A stretch of DNA of 60,498 bases from a virus. The notes under the pieces were generated by a model. That model had not been told where the DNA came from and did no database searches. It saw only the letters and a list, made by a program, of their open reading frames with translations. Position 1 is the stretch's first letter. Every line of letters begins with the position of its first letter. The DNA is taken from UHGV virus genome UHGV-1361614; one strand, given 5' to 3'. This document shows positions 5,549 to 59,722 of this stretch, in pieces. Position numbers and translations under genes: made by a program.

Positions 5549-5661
5549 CTGTCGCACATTATCAGTAAATTATTAGTAAAAATAGAATAAATACCTAGCC
5601 ATTTCTGTTTTTCGTCTTACCCACACTCACGGGAGCAACAGTAGGTAAGTTGAAAAATCTA

Positions 5662-7011
5662 TTAAAAAGTAACAAAACGAATTTCTATATCGTTTCCGTT
5701 AATAACAATCCTTTCAATGCATTCTTTTAAAACTCGGTTTTTCTCCTTAACAGAAAGCGTGTCCCAAACATCTGAAACATGCTTAATCTTTTGGATTTTT
5801 TGCGTATTATCTGGCTCCTTTCTGTCATTTTCAGTTAAAAGTTGTTTGTTCAGTTTTTCAATTTTCTTTTCCGTCTCCTTAATGACATCCATTAAGTTTT
5901 TACTTGGATTTTCTGCATAAAGTACATATAAACGTTTGACATGCTCATTTTCTTTTCTAATTGCTACCTTGAGCTTTGCAACCGGATCATCTTTCTGGCT
6001 AGTATTCGCTTTAACATTGATAGCAAACTTTTTAAAGCAATCTTCCACATCTGCTTCTATAATCTCTGCGTACGCTTTAATGTTAATACAGTTTTTATCC
6101 CGAATCATGTAACTCTTGCCACTATATTGCGAATAGCAAATAATACGCGGCTTTATTCCGTCCCATTTATGATATCTCATCCTAGCACCACATATTCCGC
6201 AGTAACATAATCCGCTCAGCAGATATCCATTTGACACATGTGCATTTGTTGAGCGCTTCTTTCGCATATCTTGTGCCATATAAAAAATCTCTTCATCAAT
6301 AATCGGTTCATGCTTGCCTTTATAAACGTTCCCTTTATATTCAATTAAACCAATATACGTTTTACGTTTAAGTGCATTATCTACAGCCTTTTCACAACTA
6401 AATCCAAGGATATTAGCAATTCTATTACATGAGTATCCTTTCAGATAAAGCCCAAATGCATCGCGAACCAGAGCTGCCTTATCAGCATCGATATGGAGTA
6501 TTCCATCATTTCTATCGTAATGATACCCAACAGGAATATTTCCACCACCAGGCCAAAGACCGTTTTTTACACGTTCAACCATTCCTGAAGACATTCTCAT
6601 TCGGATGACTTCCCTCTCATACTGGTTCATTGCTGCATTCATAGTTAGCATCATTCTGTCCATTGGGTTTTCGGTACGTAATTCTTCAGTCATTGATATT
6701 ACTTTAACTCCGTAGCTCGGAAGTGTTTTGTAAAACAAAGTTAATGTATCAATAACATCACGGCTCATACGATCCAATTTGTAGATATAAACTGTATCTA
6801 TAATTCCACTCTTCGCATGGTCTAGTAACTCTTGTATTTTCGGCCTATCGAGCTTGCTTCCACTATACCCCCCATCTATGTACCACTTGTCAACAGTAAT
6901 ACCGTGTTTTTCACAGTAATCCATGATTTTTTGTTTCTGCATATCCAAGCCGTATTTTTCAGTCTGTGTCTCTGTTGATACTCTCAAATATGCCACCTGT
7001 AATTTGCTCAT
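5662..7011 (-). CDS. large serine recombinase (phage integrase)
   Basis: 449 aa; N-terminal resolvase-type catalytic domain with the Ser in LRVSTETQ, a recombinase domain and a Cys-rich zinc-ribbon region CYCGICGARMRYH; AGGAGG RBS. Confidence 0.9.
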   Translation of the reverse strand: MSKLQVAYLRVSTETQTEKYGLDMQKQKIMDYCEKHGITVDKWYIDGGYSGSKLDRPKIQELLDHAKSGIIDTVYIYKLDRMSRDVIDTLTLFYKTLPSYGVKVISMTEELRTENPMDRMMLTMNAAMNQYEREVIRMRMSSGMVERVKNGLWPGGGNIPVGYHYDRNDGILHIDADKAALVRDAFGLYLKGYSCNRIANILGFSCEKAVDNALKRKTYIGLIEYKGNVYKGKHEPIIDEEIFYMAQDMRKKRSTNAHVSNGYLLSGLCYCGICGARMRYHKWDGIKPRIICYSQYSGKSYMIRDKNCINIKAYAEIIEADVEDCFKKFAINVKANTSQKDDPVAKLKVAIRKENEHVKRLYVLYAENPSKNLMDVIKETEKKIEKLNKQLLTENDRKEPDNTQKIQKIKHVSDVWDTLSVKEKNRVLKECIERIVINGNDIEIRFVTF

Positions 7012-7027: not shown

Positions 7028-7060
7028 AGAAAATGGCTAGGTTTTTATTCTAGCCATAGT
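7028..7060 (-). terminator. hairpin plus T-tract upstream of int; right copy of the int-flanking inverted repeat
   Basis: minus strand ATGGCTAG...CTAGCCAT stem followed by TTTTCTTTT, then the RBS and ATG of int. Confidence 0.45.
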
Positions 7061-8129: not shown

Positions 8130-8786
8130 TTATCTCAGCCCAAATGCTTTTAACTTTTCCATAGCAGCATTCGGAATAGCTACTGGCCGATCTATAGCCT
8201 TAATTTCTTGTTTTTCTTCTATCAGTGTACTTTTATCTGAAGTTTCTATTTTTGCTGTCACATCACCCTGATTAAGATTTTCAATTAATGTTCTGATTTT
8301 CAGTGGCAGCTTTCTAAGTTCCTGATTTCTTCCTATAACCATACGGTAGGATCTCATGAAGTTACTACTAGCTACGCTTTCGTTAAATTCTTCGTCCATA
8401 GCCCATATTCTGAGTTGCTCGGGTCTACCAATTGCCTTTTGAACTGATGCAGGCAGTTTTTGGAACTCTTCAACACTGTTGTATGTACTGTTCCTCAACG
8501 CCTTACTTACTAAAGTCCAAGCTTCCAACTCATTCATTTCTTGTGGAGATGTTAGTAGCATGATTTTCTCCATAATCTGACCGGGTGAAGGAGCAAAACC
8601 ACTGGAATTTGTGCGCATGTATACAGCAAATGCTCTCTGAACATCATCCCATTGGCAATCGCTCAAAGCCATTCTCCAAGCATTAACTGCTGCTGTCTTA
8701 TCCGGTGGGTTGAAATTCGGATATGTTGCTTGTATCATTGCAAGCAAGTTCTGTGTTTCTTCTCTCGTCATTATGACTGCCTCCAT
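8130..8786 (-). CDS. putative replicative helicase loader (G39P-like N-terminus)
   Basis: 218 aa; N-terminal ETQNLLAMIQATYPNF pattern as in phage loader/inhibitor proteins; adjacent to the replisome organiser. Confidence 0.45.
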   Translation of the reverse strand: MEAVIMTREETQNLLAMIQATYPNFNPPDKTAAVNAWRMALSDCQWDDVQRAFAVYMRTNSSGFAPSPGQIMEKIMLLTSPQEMNELEAWTLVSKALRNSTYNSVEEFQKLPASVQKAIGRPEQLRIWAMDEEFNESVASSNFMRSYRMVIGRNQELRKLPLKIRTLIENLNQGDVTAKIETSDKSTLIEEKQEIKAIDRPVAIPNAAMEKLKAFGLR

Positions 8787-9406
8787 TCATCTACAAGGTT
8801 TCTATCTGTATGAACTTCAGGCTGCTTTCGTGATCTCTCCCACGTTCTTACAGCTGCCTTCCAGTCTTTCATTTTGTTCTTACCTATCATCCAACCTTTA
8901 GAAACATAGAAGTTTACAAAAGATTGAGCATCAATTCCATTTCCCCTTTGCTCACAATAAGTCTGGACTTCATCCACTGTTGGGGGAATAAAAATCTGTC
9001 TTTTAGGTTCAGACTTTTCCTCTGCCTTAGGTGGTTCATCTGGTAGTTCGTTATGTGGTTCATTCTGATTTTCGGTAACTTGGAATTTGTTGTAATTTAC
9101 TACGTTTATCAGCGTTCCTCTGTTAGTTCGTTCCGTGATCACCATTTGCTCATCTTCTAATAACTTAAGGAAACGCTTGACTTTATTCCTAGACCATGAC
9201 CAGCGGGCGCTTAGCTTCTCTATACTGAACATATAGGAGCCTTTAGGGACTATGGTAGTCTTGCCGTCTACCAACATTTTTACATCCTTATGAGAAGCCG
9301 AAAGCAATATATCTATCCAAGCTGATCTTTTATCAAATGCCTCCCTACTGTTCCAAATAGAACAGTCAAATATTTGTCTATGTAGCTTTATCCAGCCTTT
9401 TTCCAT
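8771..9406 (-). CDS. phage replisome organiser / DnaD-like replication initiation protein
   Basis: 211 aa; N-terminal MEKGWIKLHRQIFD..W winged-helix pattern typical of phage replisome-organiser N-termini; C-terminal DnaD-like FVNFYVSKGWMIGKNKMKDWKAAVRTW. Confidence 0.6.
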   Translation of the reverse strand: MEKGWIKLHRQIFDCSIWNSREAFDKRSAWIDILLSASHKDVKMLVDGKTTIVPKGSYMFSIEKLSARWSWSRNKVKRFLKLLEDEQMVITERTNRGTLINVVNYNKFQVTENQNEPHNELPDEPPKAEEKSEPKRQIFIPPTVDEVQTYCEQRGNGIDAQSFVNFYVSKGWMIGKNKMKDWKAAVRTWERSRKQPEVHTDRNLVDEWRQS

Positions 9407-12042: not shown

Positions 12043-12765
12043 TTAAAACGGGCATTCACCCGGATTTTTTAATTTCCAACATTTACCTGGTTCTGCAACA
12101 TCTACATTTACTCTGGGAACCACTGCTTTCATCTTCTCGATAAATTTACCAGCATCTGCATTTTCGTTTGATAAATGGCACATAATCACATTTTGTAACT
12201 GATCTGATGCATTAGCTTTCACAAAATCACAAGCTGTATCAATGCTCATGTGTCCACGGACAACATGATTCGTTTTTGCATCGTCACCAGGCAACAGTTC
12301 CGGATCGTAATTGACACCAAGCAGAATGTGATTTACATTCTTGAACCGCCACTTAATCAACTCTGTGTCAGTTGCATAAATCATTGTTCCCATCTCCGGG
12401 TGCTGAATCCAAAAACCGTAACACGGGCATTCAGAGCCGTCACCGTTCGTGTGCATCCATTTGTCATTTAAGTCAGTTAAGTCAAATGTCCTCACTTTCC
12501 ACGGAGCTTTGAATTTCACGCCACTATCATTCCTGTATGGTGCAAATATTTGTACCCCAATACTTTCTAGGGCACTTATTGCTTTATTGTGATCTTTATG
12601 TTCGTGGGTGACTATACATCCAAAAACATGTCTTAAATCCCAATTCAAGCCTTTTTTTATTTCTGTTATTCGCAAACCAGCATCTAATATAAGTGTTTCT
12701 TCAGTATTCGTTGTTAAAAGATAGCAATTCCCAGAAGATCCAGTCCCAATAATTTTCAACCTCAT
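12043..12765 (-). CDS. metallo-beta-lactamase-fold hydrolase (phage recombination-module type)
   Basis: HEHKDH motif; MBL-fold sequence pattern. Confidence 0.7.
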   Translation of the reverse strand: MRLKIIGTGSSGNCYLLTTNTEETLILDAGLRITEIKKGLNWDLRHVFGCIVTHEHKDHNKAISALESIGVQIFAPYRNDSGVKFKAPWKVRTFDLTDLNDKWMHTNGDGSECPCYGFWIQHPEMGTMIYATDTELIKWRFKNVNHILLGVNYDPELLPGDDAKTNHVVRGHMSIDTACDFVKANASDQLQNVIMCHLSNENADAGKFIEKMKAVVPRVNVDVAEPGKCWKLKNPGECPF

Positions 12766-15614: not shown

Positions 15615-16640
15615 CTATTTTCCCTCCATTGATTCTTTTACATACAAATCCATTGAATAGCACAGTTTAATGCAATTTCCATGTAATGCATGGTTTTTCC
15701 AAGCATTATATTTTTCGTAAAACTTCTCTTCTGGCATTTTTCCAACCTTAACCAGCTCTATCCATTTATGGATGTTTTTCCTGGATCTACGTTTGTTGCT
15801 GCCATTCAATTTCCTTATATATTTGCCCTCAGCCGTTACATAATGATGAAAACCTGTAAAAGATATCCCGCACTTAAACGGAACTATTTGTGTTTTCCCA
15901 TTTAGTTCCAATCTAAGGTTTGCTAAAGTTTGCCTTATCTGGTCTAAGCACATCTTCAAATACCCTTTGTCTGGATGAATTAAATAAAAATCATCCATAT
16001 ATCTTCCGTATCTGGAAATTTTGAGATTTTCTGTAATAATATGATCCATTTCATCCAGCATCAGAAGCGCATATACCTGTGCTACCTGATTTCCAAGAGG
16101 AATTCCCAAACCTTCTGTGCTGTCAATAAATAAATGGTTCAGCCATTTTACGTACTCATCTGGTAAATGATAATCTACAATCTGCTTGAGGATTTCGTGA
16201 TCTATCTGGTAGAAAAACTTTCTGATATCACACTTAAGGATCCAGCCAGAAAGTCCATACTGACTGTAAAAATCTAGCATCTGTTCTTTCAGACAATCCA
16301 TTCCAAAATGAGTGCCTTTTCCCTCTTGCCCGGCATAATTCGTTCTGATAAAACGATTCTTTAATACCGGATGCAGAACTTCATCACAAAGACAATGCTG
16401 CACTACTTTGTCTTTAAAAGAACACGATTTAATCACCCGTTCTTTAGGCTCATATATTTTAAATTCATTGTACGAATTCATACTATATGTCTGATTTTCC
16501 AGTTGCTCTTTTAACAGGTGCAAACCTTCCAAATTCATAGTCTGAAATTTTGCACAGCTACTATTAAAACCTTTTCCAGACTTAGCTTTCCTATACGCTT
16601 TATACAGGTTCTCATAACTGCATATAACATCTTTATACAT
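15615..16640 (-). CDS. reverse transcriptase, DGR type (DGR-1)
   Basis: 341 aa; YMDDF (YxDD) motif; motif 4 GIPLGNQVAQVYALLMLDEMDH resembles the DGR-specific GNxxSQ pattern; no maturase or endonuclease domain; cognate TR lies immediately upstream. Confidence 0.85.
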   Translation of the reverse strand: MYKDVICSYENLYKAYRKAKSGKGFNSSCAKFQTMNLEGLHLLKEQLENQTYSMNSYNEFKIYEPKERVIKSCSFKDKVVQHCLCDEVLHPVLKNRFIRTNYAGQEGKGTHFGMDCLKEQMLDFYSQYGLSGWILKCDIRKFFYQIDHEILKQIVDYHLPDEYVKWLNHLFIDSTEGLGIPLGNQVAQVYALLMLDEMDHIITENLKISRYGRYMDDFYLIHPDKGYLKMCLDQIRQTLANLRLELNGKTQIVPFKCGISFTGFHHYVTAEGKYIRKLNGSNKRRSRKNIHKWIELVKVGKMPEEKFYEKYNAWKNHALHGNCIKLCYSMDLYVKESMEGK

Positions 16641-16738
16641 TGTAAAAATTCCTTTGTATTTACCCTTCCTGGGAGGGTCATGAGCTTTTTTGTATCTTTT
16701 ACTGATTTCGGCTTAATGCCTACTCTTACTATCTGTGT

Positions 16739-16825
16739 GATACAGAATGGACGAACACCGTCGTTGTTATTGTAGTTGTTGTTGTTGATATTGCCAGAAG
16801 GAGAAACAACGGTTTGTACAGCTCA
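16739..16825 (-). repeat. DGR-1 template repeat (TR)
   Basis: On the coding (minus) strand this copy carries AAC/AAT codons (NINNNNYNNNDGVRPFCI) at every position where the two VRs differ; shared 3' core CGGTGTTCGTCCATTCTGTATC. Confidence 0.8.
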
Positions 16826-16837
16826 CAGCCCAATTAC

Positions 16838-17209
16838 TTATCTTTCTTTGTCCTTCGTTCTCCAAGCAATCGCCATATGCTTAATATCAGACACCATTTT
16901 TGACCAATATTCCATGCTTTTCACATTGATAATATTTAACTTCATGGACAATTCAATGTAAAACAGAAGCTCATCGCAATGCGTGATTGCTTTGGTTTGC
17001 AATTCTGATCGGTCCCTGCGATATGACTTCAAATCGGTTCTGTTTGCTTCATACAGATACTCATAAATTTCAAGAGCCTTATTCTGCATTTTATCTACAA
17101 GAGAAAATCTGTATTTCTTCGGATACCGGTTACAATTTGAAGTCACTCGCAAGGTATGTTCCGCCAGTTCTTTTGCTTTAAGTATTACTTTTAAATCATT
17201 TTCTGGCAT
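16838..17209 (-). CDS. avd: accessory variability determinant (Avd), 23S rRNA intervening-sequence-protein-like four-helix bundle
   Basis: 123 aa, basic; DLKVILKAKELAEHTLRVTSNCNRYPKKYRFSL matches the Avd/IVS-protein pattern; canonical position between target and TR. Confidence 0.7.
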   Translation of the reverse strand: MPENDLKVILKAKELAEHTLRVTSNCNRYPKKYRFSLVDKMQNKALEIYEYLYEANRTDLKSYRRDRSELQTKAITHCDELLFYIELSMKLNIINVKSMEYWSKMVSDIKHMAIAWRTKDKER

Positions 17210-17213
17210 TTAC

Positions 17214-17820
17214 TTATTCCTCTGATTCAAAGATTGAAGAGGAAAAGATACAGAATGGACGAACACCGTCGCAGCAATCGCAGTAGCGGTTGAGGACACG
17301 GCCAGAAGGAGAAACAACGGCTACTGTACTGGAATAATCATTACATGGTGTACTCCACGGGCTAATTAACCACCACCATTTATTTGCATTAGGAATGTAT
17401 TTCCTATATTTTCTGTACTCATCTACTGTCAGAAGCGACACTTTATCAGTGCATGATCCGTATTCTGTCTGACCGTCAAGAGAAAGGAGATTTCTTTCAA
17501 ACCCTAATACATTTCCTTCTCCTATTTCTTTTTCCAGCTTTTCTAAAAATTCTTTGTTCAGATAACTTCTCAGTTTACTTGTTTCCCAGTTGTTATCGTC
17601 AGAATCAAACTCTTTATTCCCTATAGATTCTGCCAGGCACACATATCCCTCACCTGCAATATTCAGAATTTTCCATGTTGTTCCGGCAAGCTGAAATTCA
17701 TCTCCGATTGAAAGTCCAGCTGGTAACTTCTTGTTCTTAGAATTATTACCATTCAATGCATTAATTTCTTTTTTTAACTCATCGATCTGATCCTGAAGTG
17801 CTTTCATTGTTAATGCCATG
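17214..17820 (-). CDS. DGR-1 variable target protein B (C-terminal VR)
   Basis: Paralogue of the upstream gene; VR residues RVLNRYCDCCD sit where the TR encodes NINNNNYNNND; start at the ATG 2 nt after the upstream stop, with an AGGGAG RBS. Confidence 0.75.
17247..17332 (-). repeat. DGR-1 variable repeat, VR-B
   Basis: About 85 bp matching the TR; roughly 18 mismatches, all at TR adenines on the coding strand. Confidence 0.8.
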
Positions 17821-17821
17821 A

Positions 17822-18427
17822 TTATTCTCCCTTCGATACAAAGATATGAGATTTTAAGATACAAAATGGACGAACACCGCCGTTGTTATCGTAGAAGTGG
17901 CTGATGAAATTGCCAGAAGGAGAAACAACGGCCATCGAGTACTCCCATCCACGTTCTTTGGTGCTCCATGGGGTGCATGTCCACCACCAGTCACCCAGGT
18001 CTTTATTGACAAGCAGATCATTATACTTTCTGGTTTCATCAAAGGTAATCGGTCTTACCTTGCATACACAGTCTTCAAATTCGTGCTGCATATCCACTGA
18101 TGTAAGGTTTACTTTATGTTCAACCAGGTTCTCTGCGCCAAGCGCATTTTCAATGATTGGCTGAATATCAGCTTCAATCATTTTTTTAAGGCTTGATTTG
18201 TTGTAATCTTTCGTATTTCGGTCGAATACAACGTCCTCTGCCATAAATTCTTTTGAAATAACTTTTGTTGTCTGACTAGAACCATCCTGATCCAGCACGA
18301 TAAAATCATGCTCCCCGATCTTAAATGTTTCCCTAGGCTTCAGTTCTGACAGCCTTACTTTGTTCTTTTTCTCTGCTTCTTCCAACTGCTTTACTAACTC
18401 TCTTGCCATATCTAAAGCTTTGCTCAT
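17822..18427 (-). CDS. DGR-1 variable target protein A (C-terminal VR)
   Basis: 201 aa; C-terminal WWWTCTPWS...VVSPSGNFISHFYDNNGGVRPFCI; VR aligns to the TR with adenine-only changes. Confidence 0.75.
   Translation of the reverse strand: MSKALDMARELVKQLEEAEKKNKVRLSELKPRETFKIGEHDFIVLDQDGSSQTTKVISKEFMAEDVVFDRNTKDYNKSSLKKMIEADIQPIIENALGAENLVEHKVNLTSVDMQHEFEDCVCKVRPITFDETRKYNDLLVNKDLGDWWWTCTPWSTKERGWEYSMAVVSPSGNFISHFYDNNGGVRPFCILKSHIFVSKGE
17858..17945 (-). repeat. DGR-1 variable repeat, VR-A
   Basis: Matches the TR; differences only at TR-A positions (N to F/S/H/D/G). Confidence 0.8.
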
Positions 18428-23260: not shown

Positions 23261-23643
23261 TACTCCTTGCAATCCACCAACTAATGGCAACTATTTTGCT
23301 GAACCAAAACTGCATAAGTGGTGGAGTGTTTGAAGAAATATTGTTGTCGTGCAATATGTTGAAAAACTGCAAAACACAAACGGTAAAAAAATTGGGGCAA
23401 AAGCTGTTAGTGACGACACACTAGCAGTTTTTTGCTTTATTACGTTTGAAAATCCTAACTATATCTTGATTTAAGTTAGGAAAGTGTGTATACTATGAAT
23501 TGTCCAGAAACATATTATACAGTTTTTATATTTTTGTTTTTTAAAGTTGAGATTTCCTAACTTGTTTCTAGTATACGTTAGGAGGTCTTGTTTGTCAACC
23601 CAAAAAGTTGAGAAATTACAACTTTTTAAATGGAGGCCTTATT

Positions 23644-30351: not shown

Positions 30352-30765
30352 TCACTCCAGTCCTGCATCAATTAAATTGAATTTGCAGTTTTCATACTTG
30401 GTTACTATATGGCTATCCGGATCTGCGAACAACGGTTTGGCTTCTCTATCTCCGGGATACATGGTTACGGTTATTGGCTTCCCAGTCCTGTAATCCTCAA
30501 ATGTTACCGGAACATAAAATGGTTCAACTGCTCTCAACATCATCTGCCAGACTTCTGGTTCAAGCATGGCCCATTCAAGGTTATTCAGCTTATACAGATC
30601 TCTGCCCACTCGTTGACCTATGACGGCATTGTTAGCATTTCGTCCGGCATTAACAGTTGTTGTGATGATATAACTAAACCCAGCCTTGGGGCATGGAAAA
30701 TCATAACCATTCACATTCAAGAAAGCTGTTAGACCTGATCCAGTAACCCTCGTTGTCTGTGCCAT
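30352..30765 (-). CDS. tail protein
   Basis: Start chosen at MAQTTRV with a GGAGGTG RBS. Confidence 0.45.
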   Translation of the reverse strand: MAQTTRVTGSGLTAFLNVNGYDFPCPKAGFSYIITTTVNAGRNANNAVIGQRVGRDLYKLNNLEWAMLEPEVWQMMLRAVEPFYVPVTFEDYRTGKPITVTMYPGDREAKPLFADPDSHIVTKYENCKFNLIDAGLE

Positions 30766-30937
30766 TAAGTACACCTCCATTCGTTGGCAGTAATCTTTTT
30801 ATCCACCCACCCCCAAAAAAAGTAAAATCAGGGGACTTTTTCTTTTTAGATTATTACGTTAGTAATAATCTTTTTCTTTTTAATTTCTTATATTCTTTCA
30901 TTCTTACATTCTTTATATTCTTACATTCTTGTTTTGT

Positions 30938-31033
30938 GGTCCGTCTGGTAGTTCGCTTGGTGGTTCATCCGGTAGTCCGTTAGGTGGTTCACTAGGTAGT
31001 TCACTAGGTGGTTCGTTGGGTGGTTCAATATTT
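30938..31033 (-). repeat. 12-bp tandem repeat array (GAACCACCNANN x8), locus 1
   Basis: Minus strand reads GAACCACCCAAC GAACCACCTAGT GAACTACCTAGT GAACCACCTAAC GGACTACCGGAT GAACCACCAAGC GAACTACCAGAC GGACCAC; a homologous array lies in the opposite orientation at 59.5-59.7 kb. Confidence 0.7.
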
Positions 31034-31211
31034 TTTCAAAAAGTCCGCAAACCGTTGATTTTACTAGCTTTTTCGGCTATAAATATCAGTTCGCCAGTTG
31101 GTTCACATACCTAACACTACTTGAACACCAAAGTGAACACCAACCACACACCAAAACGATCACTCAACAATCACGTTTTTGGGTACATTTTGTCGGTTAG
31201 AATGGGCTGAT

Positions 31212-49136: not shown

Positions 49137-49512
49137 TGGTCAATTCAGCAATCGCCATATCGCTGTCTGTTCTAGCCTGTTTTAATTTTTCTTCGAGCTC
49201 AGCAATCTTCTTTTCTTGCTGTTCTTCTTTTGTCATAGGAATATCAGGCATCCAAGTTTGTCCTTGCGCCCAATAGGTATCAGGATCAGCTTCAATTTGC
49301 CCTTGTGTATCTTTTGTCCTAAAAAAGACTTCATCATATACATATTCCATGCCACCAGATAAGTTTTCGTCATCAGAAAGGTAAGGTGCTTGGACAATAT
49401 TTTTTCTCATCCATACATCCGCCATTCCATCCGGTCGTGCTGAATATTGTATTTCCTTTGGAATTTCTGCAGCGTGTGCTGTTGTAATCATCCCATTGTC
49501 TCCTTTCTTCAT
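49099..49512 (-). CDS. hypothetical protein
   Basis: 137 aa; true start probably an internal Met, because it overlaps the RT 3' end. Confidence 0.35.
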   Translation of the reverse strand: MKKGDNGMITTAHAAEIPKEIQYSARPDGMADVWMRKNIVQAPYLSDDENLSGGMEYVYDEVFFRTKDTQGQIEADPDTYWAQGQTWMPDIPMTKEEQQEKKIAELEEKLKQARTDSDMAIAELTIVLATMVPQSTE

Positions 49513-50734
49513 TTATTAGGTTCTGAATTTTCCTATCAAAATCTGATATTACTTTTTCCGCAAAATGCAATACTCTGAAAAGTCTCAGCCTTTTTGATAC
49601 GTTTTTAGAGTCGCTGTTATCAAACTTGCCTTTAAAAGACATCAGTCTGCGGGCTTCTTTTAGCCCCAATTCTTTTCCTCTGGCTATCTTTGCCCTGGCT
49701 CTTAGAATTCCTCTTCTATGCCGCCTAAAAGTCCTGCGGCGTATGGTCATATGATCGCAATACACTCTATAACCCATCATATCTATATCTCTGCCATGAC
49801 ACTTGCCGTCTGGTCCGATGTAATCCGTAACTTCTATTCGCCAATTTGGCTTGATCGCAAGTCCTAAGGATCTATGCAATTCTTCCGTCAGTAGCTCCAT
49901 AGCCTTCTTCAAATCACGCTCTGATGCTCCCAAAAGCAAAATATCATCCATAAACCAAATCTGATGATAGGCTAAACGAGTGCGGACTACATCTCCACTT
50001 TTCTTCCTACGGGCCTTATACAGCCTCTCGCTTATGTAGTGATACGCATGCGACAAATAGTAGTTACAGGCAAACTGTGAAAAATATGAGCCGATCGACA
50101 GCCCTTCCGGGAATGAGTCAATCAGTTCACAAATCAACCATAGCAGTTTGGGATTTTTAACATCTCTGGCAAATCTTGCCTTTATGCGGTCCTGAGGTAT
50201 GGAAGGATAACACTTGCGTATATCTCCTTTCACCCAGTAACGGCAATGCTTTGGATCCAACTGGATCCACTTCTGTATCTGCCTTGCACCTTTCTCCTGG
50301 CCACGGCCTGGTATAGATGCCATTTGATACGGTCCGATTTTAGCCATAAACATTTCTTTGCAGGCTTCCACAGCGACATAATCAAAAATTTGATGTATGG
50401 GCTTCTGGATACCGATCCGGCGCCATTTTCCACATACATCATCGTACTTATCTTTAAACTCAATTTCTGGCAGATCAAGTTTTTCATCAATCAGCCGTTT
50501 TTGTACATCGTCCGCTATCTTCTCGATGCAATCGGGCAACCAATCTGTTACTCCAATCCTCATCATCTTGCAGACTTGACGGTAGGTAAGACTTGTATAT
50601 CTGGATAAAAAGTGCTGCACATCCGCACGGCCTTTCTTTCCGTCCAGCCATAGGTATATGCAGCGCTCTATAAATCCTATATCTATAATATCGACGCATT
50701 TATAACGTCTCATAGCAGTCCTTTCTGATCTCAA
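49373..50734 (-). CDS. reverse transcriptase, DGR type (DGR-2)
   Basis: 453 aa; FMDD catalytic motif (IWFMDDILLL); DGR-specific motif 4 GLSIGSYFSQFACNYYL (SQ motif); its TR lies about 190 bp upstream. Confidence 0.85.
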   Translation of the reverse strand: MRSERTAMRRYKCVDIIDIGFIERCIYLWLDGKKGRADVQHFLSRYTSLTYRQVCKMMRIGVTDWLPDCIEKIADDVQKRLIDEKLDLPEIEFKDKYDDVCGKWRRIGIQKPIHQIFDYVAVEACKEMFMAKIGPYQMASIPGRGQEKGARQIQKWIQLDPKHCRYWVKGDIRKCYPSIPQDRIKARFARDVKNPKLLWLICELIDSFPEGLSIGSYFSQFACNYYLSHAYHYISERLYKARRKKSGDVVRTRLAYHQIWFMDDILLLGASERDLKKAMELLTEELHRSLGLAIKPNWRIEVTDYIGPDGKCHGRDIDMMGYRVYCDHMTIRRRTFRRHRRGILRARAKIARGKELGLKEARRLMSFKGKFDNSDSKNVSKRLRLFRVLHFAEKVISDFDRKIQNLINEERRQWDDYNSTRCRNSKGNTIFSTTGWNGGCMDEKKYCPSTLPF

Positions 50735-50918
50735 GGGCTTTCGGTGTGACTACTAACCCCCTGGCATGTCCTCCGCCATGCCGCCGTAGCTGCTTTTCCA
50801 CAGTTCCGGTGCCGTCTCGATCAATTTTAGGGATTGCTCCCAAGGCTGCCTAAGCAGGCCGGTTGCACGACGCTGCAAAGTGCAAAACAACTTTTTCAAC
50901 ATTGTTTTATCAGAAAAA

Positions 50919-51024
50919 CGAGAGCAGTAGTTCCACCTGCCCCTGTCCAGGGTGTTGTTCAGATTCGAGCACCGGAGGCCAGCATTCGACCTATCGTTCA
51001 GATTGCCGCCCCAGAGCGGGGAAA
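50919..51024 (-). repeat. DGR-2 template repeat (TR)
   Basis: 106 bp; coding strand carries AAC/AAT codons; differs from the VR at 51149-51250 at about 16 positions, every one a TR adenine. Confidence 0.85.
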
Positions 51025-51114
51025 AACCACAAAGCGCACCTTGCAGCCCTTTATCTTTAGTATTTTATTTTTTTAATTAAGGGGCGCTCCCCTCTCCGCT
51101 ACGCGGTTCACCCC

Positions 51115-52953
51115 CTAAGCGGCTACGCCGCGACGGAGAGAGGAAAGGCGAGAGCAGTAGAACCACCAGCCCCCGGCCAGGGAGTTGTACAGATACGAGC
51201 ACCGGAGGCCAGCATACGACCAAGCGTGCAGACCGCCGCCCCAGAGGAACTCTCTCAGCGAGGTAGTTCGTTTTCCGGTATGCAGTCCATCGCAAAAACC
51301 TGTTGTGGATGATCCCGTAGCTTCAATTGGTAACTGCAAAAACGGATATCTTGGATCATATCCTTCTTTTGATATATACTTCCAACTGTCATTTGTGTCC
51401 GGGATCGTAATATCAAGCTTTACATAATCATCAGTCAACTTGTTATTTGCAATCTTTCGATTGTCATTCACGATGTAAGGCGTCTGACTGCATGTATCGG
51501 CATCAGAGTCATATACACTAGATAAGATAATGTCTGAAATAGTGGTATATGCGCCATGAGACAACTCAACTCCTGACAGTACAAATGGTTCTTTTCCCGA
51601 TGTGCAATTACTTGGTGATCCGTCCGGTCCTAAAACATCGTCACAATCCCCTGACCACCAATGCATCGTTGACAGATATACCGGAGATGTCAGAGTATCG
51701 TTCAGCGCAACTGTATCCGTGCTAAATGCCGTCGGTGCATCTACATACACCGCGCTGTTGTTATCATCATAATCCTCAATCTTGAGAATCTTCACATCGT
51801 CCGCATACTTATGCACGTTATCGTTTCCTCGATCAGTATTCACCGTTCCATTCTGGATAAATCCATATCCGATTGATGCATAGGAGCCGACAACAAGATT
51901 TTTCGCATTATTCTTTGATATAATAATTCTTTTTACATCATTTTCAATTACAGTAGCAGGATACTGATAAGAGTAACCCGTACATCCAGTCATAGTGACC
52001 TGAGAGTTTCTGTTGGCAAACTTCATATCCATCATCCACTGCGCCCACGCTACGTCTGTAGATGTCATACCACAGTACTGAGTACCCTTCTTTGCAAACA
52101 TGCTGATCTGCCCGTTGTGGGATACGTCTCTAATTAGTTTCTTACCAGAAATAGATGATACAATGTTTTCGTCATTGTAAACACCCGGATACTTAGCCAC
52201 AAAGTAGAATGATCTGTATGTACCATCCTGCCTTACAGCTCCATCCCAAGGCTTCATGCCATCAAGCTGATGATCTGCAAAATCCCAGCTATCTTCCATA
52301 TCATTGTAAATGCGCTTATAAAACGGGGTCAGGAACGCCATGTAGACATCTCCGTTGCTGCCGTCCCTAGAAAATTCTGGCGATCCTTTTACAGCTGTGA
52401 TATGCGGTTCTCCGTCTTCATCAACATAGCCGTTGACTTCGATACCGTTAAACATCAAGTCTGTAACCGGCTTGTCCGCCAAATCATTTCTTCCCTTTGT
52501 GGTAGCTGTAGAAGTCTGCACTACAACGTCCGCATTATCTCCGGTCTTGGTACCGAGCGGGGACTGAGAAGAGGCAAACTGTGGGAAGGTTACACCGCCA
52601 TGCCAGCCGGTACGATGCAGGTCAAACCACTGACTCCAGGTTATAGCGTCTTCTTTATCAGCCTTTTTATCATTAAGAGTAGTAATTCCCCTCACTAAGT
52701 CTCCCATACCCTCAGGTAAGGCATCCGTTCCGACTTTTTTATTTACCCCATACAAGGCAGCCATGCTCGGGATTTTATTTGCATCGTCAGCAATCTCGTC
52801 TTTTACCGCATCTATAATTGCTTTGACGCCATCGGCAGCACTTTTGATACCTGCCTCCATGTGATTAAGTCTGTCAGCATTTATAGGTGTTGTTTTATCC
52901 GGAGCATTTTTCCAGGATTGCTCGCTATAATCTTTTACATTGTCCAGTTTCAT
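51115..52953 (-). CDS. DGR-2 variable target: tail fibre-like receptor-binding protein with C-terminal VR
   Basis: 612 aa; N-terminus MKLDNVKDYSEQSWKNAPDKTTPINADRLNHME is typical of phage tail fibres; C-terminus WGGGLHAWSYAGLRCSYLYNSLAGGWWFYCSR aligns with the TR-encoded WGGNLNDRSNAGLRCSNLNNTLDRGRWNYCSR. Confidence 0.8.
   Translation of the reverse strand: MKLDNVKDYSEQSWKNAPDKTTPINADRLNHMEAGIKSAADGVKAIIDAVKDEIADDANKIPSMAALYGVNKKVGTDALPEGMGDLVRGITTLNDKKADKEDAITWSQWFDLHRTGWHGGVTFPQFASSQSPLGTKTGDNADVVVQTSTATTKGRNDLADKPVTDLMFNGIEVNGYVDEDGEPHITAVKGSPEFSRDGSNGDVYMAFLTPFYKRIYNDMEDSWDFADHQLDGMKPWDGAVRQDGTYRSFYFVAKYPGVYNDENIVSSISGKKLIRDVSHNGQISMFAKKGTQYCGMTSTDVAWAQWMMDMKFANRNSQVTMTGCTGYSYQYPATVIENDVKRIIISKNNAKNLVVGSYASIGYGFIQNGTVNTDRGNDNVHKYADDVKILKIEDYDDNNSAVYVDAPTAFSTDTVALNDTLTSPVYLSTMHWWSGDCDDVLGPDGSPSNCTSGKEPFVLSGVELSHGAYTTISDIILSSVYDSDADTCSQTPYIVNDNRKIANNKLTDDYVKLDITIPDTNDSWKYISKEGYDPRYPFLQLPIEATGSSTTGFCDGLHTGKRTTSLREFLWGGGLHAWSYAGLRCSYLYNSLAGGWWFYCSRLSSLRRGVAA
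51149..51250 (-). repeat. DGR-2 variable repeat (VR)
   Basis: At the 3' end of the target gene, about 10 codons before the stop; followed by a GC-rich imperfect hairpin at 51088-51148. Confidence 0.85.
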
Positions 52954-55580: not shown

Positions 55581-55976
55581 TTAATTTAATTGTTTAATAG
55601 CGTTTTCACAAAACCTTATATGGCTTTTACATAGTTCAATTCTCGTTTTGTTATCAACAATAACTCCGTCAAAACACTCTGCATATGCTTTTATTTTTTC
55701 TCTAGTCATTTCGATTTCTGCCAAAAACCACTCTTTCGATTTAGAGTAATTATTGCAAAGTTTCAATTCATCGCATATGCATTTTGTGATATCACAAAAT
55801 GGTTGCGGGTGTTCTACTCTGCTCAAAGCATCTTCAAAAGTGCATTTTTCTTTGTAGTCCATAATAATGCCAACAGCTTCATATTTTCCAAGATTAACTC
55901 CCAAAAACCTATCAGAAACTGTATTCCATATTGCATATAAATTATCTACATCGTCCTGAAGAGCAACAATCAACAT
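55581..55976 (-). CDS. hypothetical Cys-containing protein
   Basis: Start moved to MLIVALQDD, which has an AAAGGA RBS. Confidence 0.4.
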   Translation of the reverse strand: MLIVALQDDVDNLYAIWNTVSDRFLGVNLGKYEAVGIIMDYKEKCTFEDALSRVEHPQPFCDITKCICDELKLCNNYSKSKEWFLAEIEMTREKIKAYAECFDGVIVDNKTRIELCKSHIRFCENAIKQLN

Positions 55977-56107
55977 ACTATTCCTTTCTTTTTTGCCCGG
56001 CTGCCGTCGCAATCTACAACATCTCTTTTGACCAGATTGGTATTTTACCGCAATGGTGCGTGGGTGCAATGAATTTTCCCACCTCGGGCAAACATAGCAT
56101 ACAAAAA

Positions 56108-56180
56108 TAGACCATCTGTGATTTGAACCCAGGACAAACCGCTTATGAGGCGGTCGCTCTAGCCACTGAGATAACGGTCC
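56108..56180 (-). tRNA. tRNA-Met-like (anticodon CAU)
   Basis: By-eye cloverleaf: acceptor GGACCGU / AUGGUCU with two G-U pairs; anticodon stem ACCGC/GCGGU; loop CUCAUAA; T-arm CUGGG-UUCAAAU-CACAG with one mismatch. Confidence 0.45.
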
Positions 56181-56698: not shown

Positions 56699-56771
56699 CT
56701 AGGCTACCGGGATTTGAACCCGGGCATCCAGGTGTCAAAGACCTGTGTCTTCACCGCTTGACTATAGCCCA
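56699..56771 (-). tRNA. tRNA-Gln (anticodon UUG)
   Basis: UGGGCUA-UA-GUC-AAGCGGUGAA-GAC-A-CAGGU-CUUUGAC-ACCUG-GAUGC-CCGGG-UUCAAAU-CCCGG-UAGCCUA-G; the U1-A72 closing pair is the bacterial tRNA-Gln hallmark. Confidence 0.6.
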
Positions 56772-58318: not shown

Positions 58319-58941
58319 CTAATCATCACTAGATATGGTTTTTGTTGTCTCCGTGTCCGTATCCGGGAGACTTTCAGCATCTGGCGGGAACAACCTGGGC
58401 AGCTGTTCGGCTGTAAGTTTTGGCTTTGGCTGCTCAATATGCACCGGTGCAGTCTCTACTAGACCATCAACAGCTTTGCAGAGAAAGATATAACCAACAT
58501 TGCCAGCTGCGGCCCCTTTGTATCGTCCCAACCTACATTCATTCTGCCATTTTCGGACGGTGTCGGCCCTCGAACAACTAAGTTTAGAACACCAATCACT
58601 ACTCCTATACTCCCCAGAAGCCCATGAATATAATATATCTCTTGAGCATCCAATCAATAACGCAAACTCTTCTAATACAGGCTTTTGATCATATTTATAA
58701 ACGATATCAATATACATATCCCATATATCATCTAAAAGATTAATATCGTCATATATAGCCCTAGTAAATCCCATTTTTTTATTAATATATCTTATAAGAC
58801 CTGTAAACGTACTGGAGGATAGTTTATATAAATTTTCTGGGTGTGGTAAACTGTCCTCATACTCCTGAGCATATATATGCATATCATCTGGGTATATCTC
58901 AATACCTGCATCTGTGCTGACTGCATTAGTTTTTTTTGTAG
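58319..58941 (-). CDS. hypothetical protein at the head of the late operon (possible small terminase-like DNA-binding protein)
   Basis: GTG start with a GGAGGTG RBS; preceded by a consensus promoter and a long leader. Confidence 0.4.
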
Positions 58942-59127
58942 ATCTGCTCACTGTATCACCTCCAGAAAAGAATATAAAAAACGCCCACAGACAGAACCGA
59001 TATAGATCCCATCTGTGAGCGTGTAGCCTCGAATTTTGCCGTCCTTGCTCCTGCTGCCTATCCTGATCCGAGTTGTGCGCCCTTCTCACGGCTCCAGGGC
59101 AACCCTACAAGACTCAGCTATATTGTA

Positions 59128-59165
59128 CATAAAGCATACACCAGATTTTTTTATCTGTCAAGCAT
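59128..59165 (-). promoter_or_regulatory. near-consensus sigma-A promoter facing the late genes
   Basis: Minus strand reads TTGACA, 17-bp spacer, then TATGCT. Confidence 0.45.
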
Positions 59166-59529
59166 ATACACTATGTCATTTTTACAGATACCCTAGGCCC
59201 TTATATATAATATATATATTAATAATAATTATCGTTGATTATATTAAAAATAAATATATAAAAGCCCTATAGTGTATAAATATATCAGAATAGGGATTAA
59301 AAGAGATATAAAGGAATATAGGTTAATAGGGGGTATGGGGGAAAGAAGGAAAAAGGGAAGAAAAGAGACATTAAGGGAAAGGAGGTAAATTTATACGCAT
59401 TGTCTACCTGCTAATCTGCTCATCTTGCCCGGCTGCCTGGATCCGGTCCAGTTGTGATCTTCGTTGCCTGAAAAAACTAGATTTTATGCCAGTTTCCGGG
59501 ATTTATGGAAGTTGCCCGGGCACAGTTCT

Positions 59530-59722
59530 GGAAGTGTCCGTAAAATGCCAAAATGAGCACCGTTAACACTAGATGAACCAGAAAGTGAACCAATACATGA
59601 ACCACCAGACGAACCAGTAAAAACTCAGTAAATACAAGGCTTTGCGGACATATGCGAACAGCAGGCGAACCAGCCAACGGACTAGCAAACGGACACCCAG
59701 ACGAACCAATAGAGCACAAAAA
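59530..59722 (+). repeat. 12-bp tandem repeat element, locus 2 (inverted homologue of locus 1)
   Basis: atGAACCAgaaa gtGAACCAatac atGAACCAccag acGAACCAgtaa, then core AGTAAATACAAGGCTTTGCGGAC, then gcGAACAgcagg cGAACCAgccaa cGGACTAgcaaa cGGACACccaga cGAACCAatag. Confidence 0.65.

Follow-up and report, generated by a model that had tools for sequence, protein, structure and literature searches.

A probable replication origin displaced from its initiator gene in a temperate phage of human-gut Lachnospiraceae

The virus genome UHGV-1361614 (60,498 nt; hereafter the window) carries tandem 12-nt repeats in two intergenic loci, at 30.8–31.2 kb (locus 1) and 59.5–59.75 kb (locus 2), and in a third place, inside the gene for a putative replisome organizer (8771–9406, minus strand). 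We consider it probable that these units are iterons for the N-terminal domain of the organizer, and that the full origin of the phage most likely lies at locus 1, outside the initiator gene in which relatives carry it. The repeats are a familiar kind of element in an unusual place. The evidence base for this reading is comparative sequence analysis throughout, and three lines support it directly: the homology of locus 1 to origins inside the initiator genes of relatives, a constraint on the repeat motif at the DNA level, and the co-occurrence of the repeats with one type of organizer N-domain. From these we infer binding, unwinding, the choice of firing site and the role of locus 2. The result is an origin assignment for widespread, uncultured temperate phages of human-gut Lachnospiraceae, the relatives of which document how an origin can move out of the initiator gene that once enclosed it.

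Since two relatives continue across its ends, the window must represent a circular or permuted genome; essentially all its genes are on the minus strand. Locus 1 belongs to the tail module and borders an island of variable content with antirepressor and Rha genes. Read along the minus strand, it passes from a GTGATYG doublet through three inverted units and two weak direct units to a core, and from there through eight units and an A+T-rich tract to a palindrome, after which a tail gene begins, with its ribosome-binding site and its start at 30780:

31157–31175, minus strand: GTGATYG doublet GTGATTGttgaGTGATCG, present in four copies in a distant clade
31088–31160, no strand assigned: left flank of locus 1, read from the sequence and conserved in relatives
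31123–31160, plus strand: inverted GAACACC-type units spaced by 12 nt, TGAACACC twice and ACACACC
31097–31104, minus strand: weak direct unit GAACCAAC, which with GCGAACTG makes about two such units
31043–31065, minus strand: core AGTAAAATCAACGGTTTGCGGAC, matching the right half-site and centre of a tyrosine-recombinase attachment (att) core common in mobile elements of Lachnospiraceae
30931–31026, minus strand: iteron array of eight tandem 12-nt units, G[AG]AC[CT]ACC plus a 4-nt variable spacer, the last unit being GGACCACAAAAC
30885–30930, minus strand: AAGAATR tract, 80% A+T, abutting the last iteron; presumed DNA-unwinding element
30848–30871, no strand assigned: palindrome AGATTATTAC-GTTA-GTAATAATCT, with perfect 10-bp stems and a 4-nt loop
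30821–30836, plus strand: degenerate second core-like copy AGTAAAATCAGGGGAC, inverted relative to 31043–31065; weak, read from the sequence

The repeats are far from a chance occurrence. The pattern GAACYA-N6-GAACYA has nine matches in the window against 0.02 expected, all of them confined to locus 1, locus 2 and 9026–9061, and the core pattern, allowing three mismatches or fewer, has two matches against none expected. Each of the three places has at least three tandem direct repeats at a roughly helical spacing, as iterons do: eight of 12 nt in locus 1, four plus five in locus 2 and three in the gene. The AAGAATRT repeats of the tract have a period of 8 and 5.6 copies (Tandem Repeats Finder, TRF), and 46–91 bp at 80–82% A+T abut the last iteron, as would be expected of an unwinding element. 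The two most A+T-rich 60-nt segments of the genome, at 59202 (top) and 30860 (second), fall at the two loci, which we count in favour of an origin.

The repeats had been noticed before, in a sequence-only reading of this DNA. Everything it listed is present, i.e. the 12-bp repeats, the core, the 8-bp repeats and the palindrome, the last of these at 30848–30871 rather than about 30850–30873. Its description of units on either side of the core holds for locus 2 (four plus five), while locus 1 is not symmetric, with eight good units on one side and, on the other, about two weak direct ones and three inverted ones. The two loci are real, yet the third cluster (9026–9061, minus strand) had been missed. 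The loci had been called homologous; units and core are indeed shared, but outside these the two align poorly. The distance given between them, about 28 kb, is about 28.5 kb one way round the circle and about 32 kb the other way.

The third cluster connects the repeats to a protein. The gene that holds it, and the gene next to it, can be described as follows:

8771–9406, minus strand: putative replisome organizer or origin-binding protein, DnaD-like and O-like, with a winged-helix N-domain, a disordered linker and a helical C-domain
9026–9061, minus strand: three iterons inside the organizer gene, in frame and encoding EPHNELPDEPPK, with no AAGAATR tract or palindrome after them
8130–8786, minus strand: helicase-loader-like gene directly downstream of the organizer gene (phrog_9804, 7e-50; phrog_2289 'helicase loader', 2e-7)

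The product of 8771–9406 matches the DnaD-like helicase-loader PHROGs 2514 (at 7e-30), 186 and 7498, as well as PHROG 428 (replication initiation protein) and, weakly, the O-like PHROGs 345 and 678. In its AlphaFold model a winged-helix N-domain (residues ~20–110, pLDDT 75–92) and a helical C-domain are joined by a disordered linker, residues 112–137, which is exactly the part encoded by the iterons; a repeat finder placed the in-gene units at 9027–9064, with NEPHNELPDEPPK as the encoded peptide. Foldseek returned winged-helix DNA-binding domains, including weak matches to the N-domains of plasmid initiators (4pql, 4pt7; E ~0.02). [quoted passage not shown]

Relatives of the organizer suggest where such a module comes from. 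Among 80 IMG/VR loci that encode them, most of the rep genes examined contain repeated 8-mers (three copies or more) in mid-gene, and the linkers inspected hold 11–12-nt tandem units. Each clade has its own unit sequence (among them GAAACGACA, CGACCAACGAG, GAGACCACAGGC and TGACCAGCAAG), and many of the arrays pass directly into CACAAACAAGAATG or CACAAACAAGAATGAAAAGAATG repeats. AAGAATR is clustered, with at least three copies together, in 17 of these 80 rep genes, and the 1.1 Mb of DNA flanking them contains no such cluster; the sole one in the window, at 30891–30930, abuts the locus-1 array in the same orientation. No extragenic iteron clusters were found within ±10 kb of the other rep genes of the family. 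The most telling result came from a search with the N-domain alone. In a sister clade (N-domain 59–61% identical), eight in-gene units of the GAACCACC type (G[AG]AC[CT]A[ACG]C) are followed by GAACCACAAATAAAGAATATAAGAAATAAAGAAGATAAGAATATATATA, an AAGAATA tract, and then by a palindrome with 10-bp stems and a 4-nt loop, i.e. in the order seen in locus 1, and locus 1 aligns to the in-gene origins of three relatives (L463, L467 and L063). The palindrome of L463 is ATATAGTATC-TAAC-GATACTATAT, and that of L383, at the place of the locus-1 palindrome, is ATAAATTTAC-TTCG-GTAAATTTAT; the structure of 10-bp stems and 4-nt loop is thus kept with three unrelated stem sequences. The ancestral arrangement would be a module embedded in the linker-coding middle of the organizer gene.

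Closer relatives supply the later steps. The organizer gene of the window keeps three units and lacks tract and palindrome, and in IMG/VR locus-1 arrays are carried by precisely the four contigs whose N-domains are most similar to that of the window (060590, 087778, 071685 and 065977; identities of 97, 97, 92 and 72%). The last of these, at 72%, has no iterons in the gene, its external module consisting of six units, the tract and a different 10-bp palindrome. Read across the family, these sequences are a graded series in which the origin apparently leaves the initiator gene, from a full in-gene module, through an in-gene triplet with an external module, to a gene free of iterons. An encoded DNA-binding initiator whose type co-varies with the repeat is also what iterons with a cognate initiator would call for. 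A three-unit pattern scan of IMG/VR gave relevant matches in the window's own clade; the others were mostly unrelated coding repeats of EPP type, e.g. in giant viruses, and were set aside. In the GenBank phage collection (blastn), locus 1 matched the antirepressor gene only and locus 2 matched nothing.

In one frame the locus-1 units read as EPPx tetrapeptides without a start codon, as first reported for this DNA; the frame is open for 40 codons only and free of stops across the array. This raises the question of whether the loci are functionless debris, i.e. decaying fragments of a duplicated rep gene in which EPPx is a coding fossil. Such a descent would account for the homology of the module to the linker-coding part of rep genes, for the stop-free frame and for the linker similarity that tblastn detects. 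The pattern of substitution runs the other way. Across six distinct haplotypes of the locus-1 array, drawn from IMG/VR and ten metagenome contigs, 3 of 64 columns are variable at motif positions 1–8, against 13 of 32 at spacer positions 9–12 (Fisher p=2e-5). Positions 3 and 6, the wobble positions of a supposed reading frame, are invariant throughout, while changes are frequent at positions one and two of the fourth 'codon'. A fixed 8-nt motif with variable spacers is the reverse of what coding or neutral decay should leave and argues for constraint at the DNA level; it is the signature of a DNA-binding motif with a free spacer. A coding EPPx gene or pseudogene is likewise disfavoured by the missing start and by variation that does not fall at synonymous sites. 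Further, a clade that has diverged to 77% identity in the adjoining tail protein still has the module, and the palindrome is preserved in structure and not in sequence. When a profile of the organizer family was run against the six-frame translation of the window, it found nothing beyond the linker and no trace of the N- or C-domain at either locus (E>3), from which we take the loci to be origin segments and not whole pseudogenes. A tblastn match to the C-domain (FYxSKGW) at 30750–30827 was rejected, being unsupported by the profile and overlapping the ribosome-binding site and start of the tail gene. We therefore regard debris as very unlikely.

Of the two options that the sequence-only reading had left side by side, decayed coding remnants and protein-binding iterons, it is the iteron and origin option that gains support. 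The first is right in a historical sense only: the module is homologous to linker-coding DNA, while the constraint on it now lies at the DNA level. That reading had also named, as a finding that would count against it, repeats lying in frame within longer genes of relatives, as pseudogene debris with no conserved core. In the sister clade they lie in frame in just this way, and there they appear to be an origin embedded in the gene and not debris.

We propose the following course for initiation. The winged-helix N-domain of the organizer would bind the 12-nt units, loading cooperatively on sites spaced by 12 bp; this would distort the DNA and open the adjacent A+T tract; and the C-domain, together with the loader (8130–8786), would then recruit the host replicative helicase, with the phage SSB stabilizing the bubble as theta replication begins. 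The att-type core between the arrays would be a drifting relic or an architectural site.

Several observations weigh against the origin assignment. GC skew is uniformly negative, with no inflection at either locus, although a gene layout on one strand would hide one. The organizer matches no curated Pfam or NCBIfam replication family above threshold and no PDB sequence, and the role suggested for it comes from the names of PHROG families, from neighbouring genes and from the iterons within its gene. The units of locus 2 are weak, are not accompanied by an AAGAATR tract and are found in the two closest relatives only, all of which makes the function of that locus doubtful. Finally, an att-type core sits in both extragenic arrays, and neither the origin explanation nor chance predicts it.

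The core deserves attention in its own right. It is not private to the two loci, being shared with attachment sites of at least 27 unrelated flank families. A search with the 23-nt pattern AGTAAANNCAANGNTTTGCGGAC returned 60 stretches in IMG/VR and 113 in genomes, the latter almost all Lachnospiraceae. In at least nine IMG/VR families it lies 50–550 bp past the 3' end of tyrosine-integrase genes, with short direct repeats particular to each family to its left and right, in the classic attP layout; in genomes it sits after the lysS stop codon or a tRNA gene. The full site, GTCCGCAAACCC-AGTAAAATCAA-GGGTTTGCGGAC, consists of inverted half-sites around a short centre and is found in 29 flank families, including the two loci of the window. 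The core of the window agrees with the att consensus at 22 of 23 positions and so matches a bacterial att core, as an attP core should. By comparison, a derivation from VVNY codons of the rep gene (AGTAAATTAC) accounts for 11 of 23 positions and was dropped, as was a terminator reading of the locus-1 core, for which a scan found none. The core (AATCAAGGGTTTG) also fits the E. coli IHF consensus (WATCAANNNNTTR), a lead that was not used; Firmicutes are generally not known to have IHF.

A side result of this search is that one 23-nt att core is common to at least 27 Lachnospiraceae tyrosine-integrase flank families, each with its own arm repeats (e.g. L141, L171, L219, L193). The insertion sites of these elements follow lysS or tRNA genes, tandem insertions seem to be frequent, and many of the elements carry a replacement lysS 3' end (TTCCCGACGATGAAAACGCTTGGCGGAAAAGACC).

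Could the loci themselves be attachment or recombination sites, the core serving as crossover, the repeats as arm-type sites and a recombinase acting in trans for integration, inversion or resolution? The company that the core keeps elsewhere, near tyrosine-integrase genes with flanking direct repeats and at the lysS and tRNA junctions, speaks for this, as does the canonical form of the full site. Moreover, the arms GACCACAAA of one att family resemble the last iteron, and one relative (contig 091929) has a tyrosine integrase and the core in the slot that the serine integrase occupies in the window. Core-like sequences are also rare: when up to four mismatches were allowed, 2.2 Mb of related DNA yielded only four loci that do not belong to the clade of the window, which argues that the link of the core to both arrays is not chance. 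The window, however, contains no tyrosine recombinase by tblastn with nine neighbouring integrases, its only recombinase being a large serine one, and the real attP lies ~30 nt past the serine-integrase gene, at ~5632, where prophage–host junctions fall in five contigs; none of these junctions is at the core. The right half of the core drifts among near-identical relatives (GCGGAC, GCAGAC, GCTAAC), and in a distant clade this 3' end is lost while the iterons persist. The supposed arms are initiator iterons with an origin-type A+T tract attached. All assemblies, finally, are collinear: the 28-kb segment between the loci had been suggested to be invertible, and the six assemblies of relatives that extend past locus 1 into this segment, with two across locus 2, all have the orientation of the window, a result at the level of assemblies that leaves rare isomers in reads aside. 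In our judgement a recombination site is an unlikely explanation.

The absence of a tyrosine recombinase, an attP elsewhere, and drift and loss of the core all argue that the phage does not now employ the core for attachment. Possible readings are a remnant left when the origin changed place, an architectural site, or a live site for recombinases acting in trans. Another reading is that the origin module left the gene not by chance drift but was moved, or can still be moved or inverted, as a cassette by site-specific recombination, since each external array surrounds a tyrosine-recombinase core that is accompanied by a second, degenerate copy in inverted orientation. The copy beside locus 1 (30821–30836) is not conserved in L374 or L383. 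We hold the cassette to be unlikely. If it were true, integrases of co-resident elements that target lysS or tRNA genes could relocate or flip the phage origin, or the phage could use the attachment sites of those elements, with initiator–iteron complexes replacing arm-site complexes. The occurrence of an att-type core in each external array suggests a possible connection between where an origin is placed and site-specific recombination.

Locus 2 separates the early genes from the operon that runs towards the terminase. Along the minus strand a weak terminator precedes it, and the core-like copy, a polypyrimidine tract, an A+T-rich stretch and a promoter follow. In coordinate order its parts are these:

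59133–59161, minus strand: promoter-like TTGACA-17-TATGCT, before the gene at 58319–59089, the first of the operon leading to the terminase
59200–59262, no strand assigned: most A+T-rich stretch of the genome (94% A+T), ~310 bp from the locus-2 arrays
59290–59385, no strand assigned: polypurine (plus strand)/polypyrimidine tract of 96 nt, 84% purine, between locus 2 and the A+T-rich stretch
59477–59501, plus strand: degenerate core-like copy with reversed centre, CTAGATTTTATGCCAGTTTCCGGGA, clearer in relatives (GATTTACTCCGGTTTGCGGGC)
59575–59622, plus strand: first array, four 12-nt units (GAACCA + N6)
59627–59649, plus strand: core AGTAAATACAAGGCTTTGCGGAC, a TA variant
59656–59714, plus strand: second array, five units, GAACAG, GAACCAGC, GGACTAGC, GGACACCC and GAACCAAT, followed by CACAAAAAAG

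In the first array, GGTTCG/GGTTCA (as read on the minus strand) is kept in the relatives L452 and L458 while the spacers vary, and an EPPx-type frame is open for 24 codons. The TA-variant core was found in IMG/VR in contigs 071685 and 073970 only. The 94% A+T stretch is a possible unwinding element of locus 2. Taken together, locus 2 and the in-gene triplet are best read, from their sequences, as auxiliary organizer-binding arrays of uncertain role. For locus 2, whose nine weaker units run opposite to those of locus 1, conceivable functions are that of a second origin or those of titration, handcuffing or a fork barrier, as proposed for oriR of phage SPP1 (see below). The polypurine tract is conserved in L452 and L458 and may be prone to triplex or H-DNA formation. 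Another observation concerns both loci: in a metagenome haplotype of locus 1 (L542), the first unit is GAACCAATACAT, followed by GAACCACCAGAT, and these match units 2–3 of locus 2 (GAACCAATACAT GAACCACCAGAC, window 59587–59610), which suggests gene conversion between locus 1 and locus 2.

The positions of the loci also bring to mind packaging (pac or cos) sites for the small terminase, or operator arrays through which Rha, the antirepressor or another protein would control late genes. Locus 2 has a weak terminator on one side and, on the other, a good promoter heading the terminase-leading operon, locus 1 precedes tail genes, and repeat arrays are present at some pac sites (P1, SPP1). Against this, the arrays are more than 3.5 kb from the candidate small-terminase gene (55581–56069), which precedes the large-terminase gene; the motif sits in the initiator gene and tracks the type of initiator N-domain, not terminase or Rha; relatives keep locus 1 beside different morons; and the A+T tract and palindrome are an origin signature. 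The sequence-only reading had proposed a pac site or binding by the small terminase, Rha/Bro or sigma-like proteins, and no link to any of these was found, the repeats co-occurring instead with one initiator N-domain. Packaging or operator function strikes us as highly improbable.

It is harder still to see the loci as sources of structured or repeat-containing noncoding RNAs, e.g. protein sponges, an explanation we hold to be extremely improbable. In its favour, the intergenic regions are strongly conserved in sequence and contain periodic motifs. Yet the Rfam 15 covariance models gave no match at either locus, at the gathering threshold or up to E=10, no promoter or terminator is predicted at locus 1, and units of the same kind lie within a protein-coding gene. 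The GTGATCG repeats at the far end of locus 1 were also considered as a general motif and rejected, since the window shows no enrichment of them and they do not occur beyond the clade.

The closest precedent for the displaced origin proposed here is SPP1, with oriL, oriR and the initiator G38P. In that phage gene 38 contains oriL, while oriR, which shares its repeats and likewise has an A+T-rich unwinding element, belongs to a segment of the late region in which three morons lie between transcription signals; according to one proposal, gp38 bound at oriR halts replication forks and so sets off the change to concatemer synthesis (PMC6316719, PMC5737612). The window likewise has one repeat cluster in the organizer gene and another elsewhere with the same repeats, both phages combine repeats with an A+T-rich unwinding element, A+T-rich islands mark the origins, and all genes lie on one strand. 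The late-region setting of oriR, with the same repeats, morons and transcription signals, is matched as well, locus 1 being in the tail module next to antirepressor morons and locus 2 between a weak terminator and a promoter. There are also differences. Here the in-gene cluster lacks the A+T tract and the external one is complete, and the gene of one relative is devoid of iterons; the clusters number three and not two; the phage is temperate; and the external loci contain an att-type core. The organizer, moreover, has no Pfam Phage_rep_org_N match at E<0.01, matching only DnaD-like and O-like PHROGs, so that it can be compared with G38P in its proposed role only. If the assignment is right, it extends the two-origin arrangement of SPP1 to a temperate phage of another bacterial class, and the questions posed by SPP1 arise here too: which site fires, and does a second site, once bound, set off concatemer synthesis?

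Other replicons offer partial parallels. The lambda origin lies in the middle of gene O, its iterons followed by an A+T-rich tract (PMC7466680). The family arrangement described above resembles it, with an origin in mid-initiator gene, in the linker between the DNA-binding domain and the domain that interacts with the helicase loader; the units differ in length (12 nt versus ~19 bp) and number (eight versus four to six), and the complete module in the window is extragenic. Lambdoid origins also have a palindrome beyond the A+T tract. In RepA_N plasmid initiators, such as RepA of the staphylococcal plasmid pSK41, a winged-helix N-domain binds iterons located centrally in its own gene, and the C-domain is DnaD-like. 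An oriV inside repA resembles the in-gene arrangement, the Foldseek matches given above (4pql, 4pt7) being weak; unlike those proteins, the organizer belongs to a phage and not a plasmid, and there is no match between them at the sequence level. Iteron plasmids (P1 incA, F incC) have extra iteron clusters away from the unwinding element that act in titration and handcuffing. A similar role is possible for locus 2 and the in-gene triplet, here in a phage that integrates by a serine recombinase. Lastly, the loci share with the attP of tyrosine integrases a central core flanked by short direct-repeat arrays, the core matching Lachnospiraceae att cores; they differ in that there is no integrase, the repeats are initiator iterons, the phage has its own attP elsewhere and the core is drifting.

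Some observations on the integration module of the phage fall outside the argument. In five long metagenome contigs (L531–L533, L535, L536, 13745–16140; window 5600–7011), the serine-recombinase gene is the last phage gene and is directly followed by a truncated sporulation-type sigma factor (regions 3–4) and then spoVAA, spoVAB and spoVAC. This suggests that the prophage interrupts a sigF-like gene, like intervening elements of the skin/SPbeta type. A 22-nt inverted repeat (5583–5604 and 7031–7052, 95% complementary) brackets the serine-recombinase gene. The tyrosine integrase and att core of contig 091929, in the same slot, suggest that the integration module is exchangeable.

Elsewhere in the window, a metal-dependent hydrolase (phrog_392; 12043–12765, minus strand) has a faint precomputed Pfam match to Anti-Pycsar Apyc1 in its metagenome copies, and it may be an anti-defence gene within the early block of replication and recombination genes. 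Rfam matches above the gathering score were obtained for a FuFi-1 RNA (23273–23433, plus strand; 142 bits), a skipping-rope RNA just upstream of the terminase region (55992–56092, minus strand; 51 bits) and two tRNAs (56108–56180 and 56699–56771, both minus strand). The window also contains two diversity-generating retroelements, at 15615–18427 and 49373–52953. The first comprises a reverse transcriptase (15615–16640), Avd (16838–17209) and 108-nt repeats (16706–16813, 17214–17321, 17825–17932), and the second a reverse transcriptase (49373–50734) with 104-nt repeats (50913–51016, 51143–51246) beside the gene at 51115–52953.

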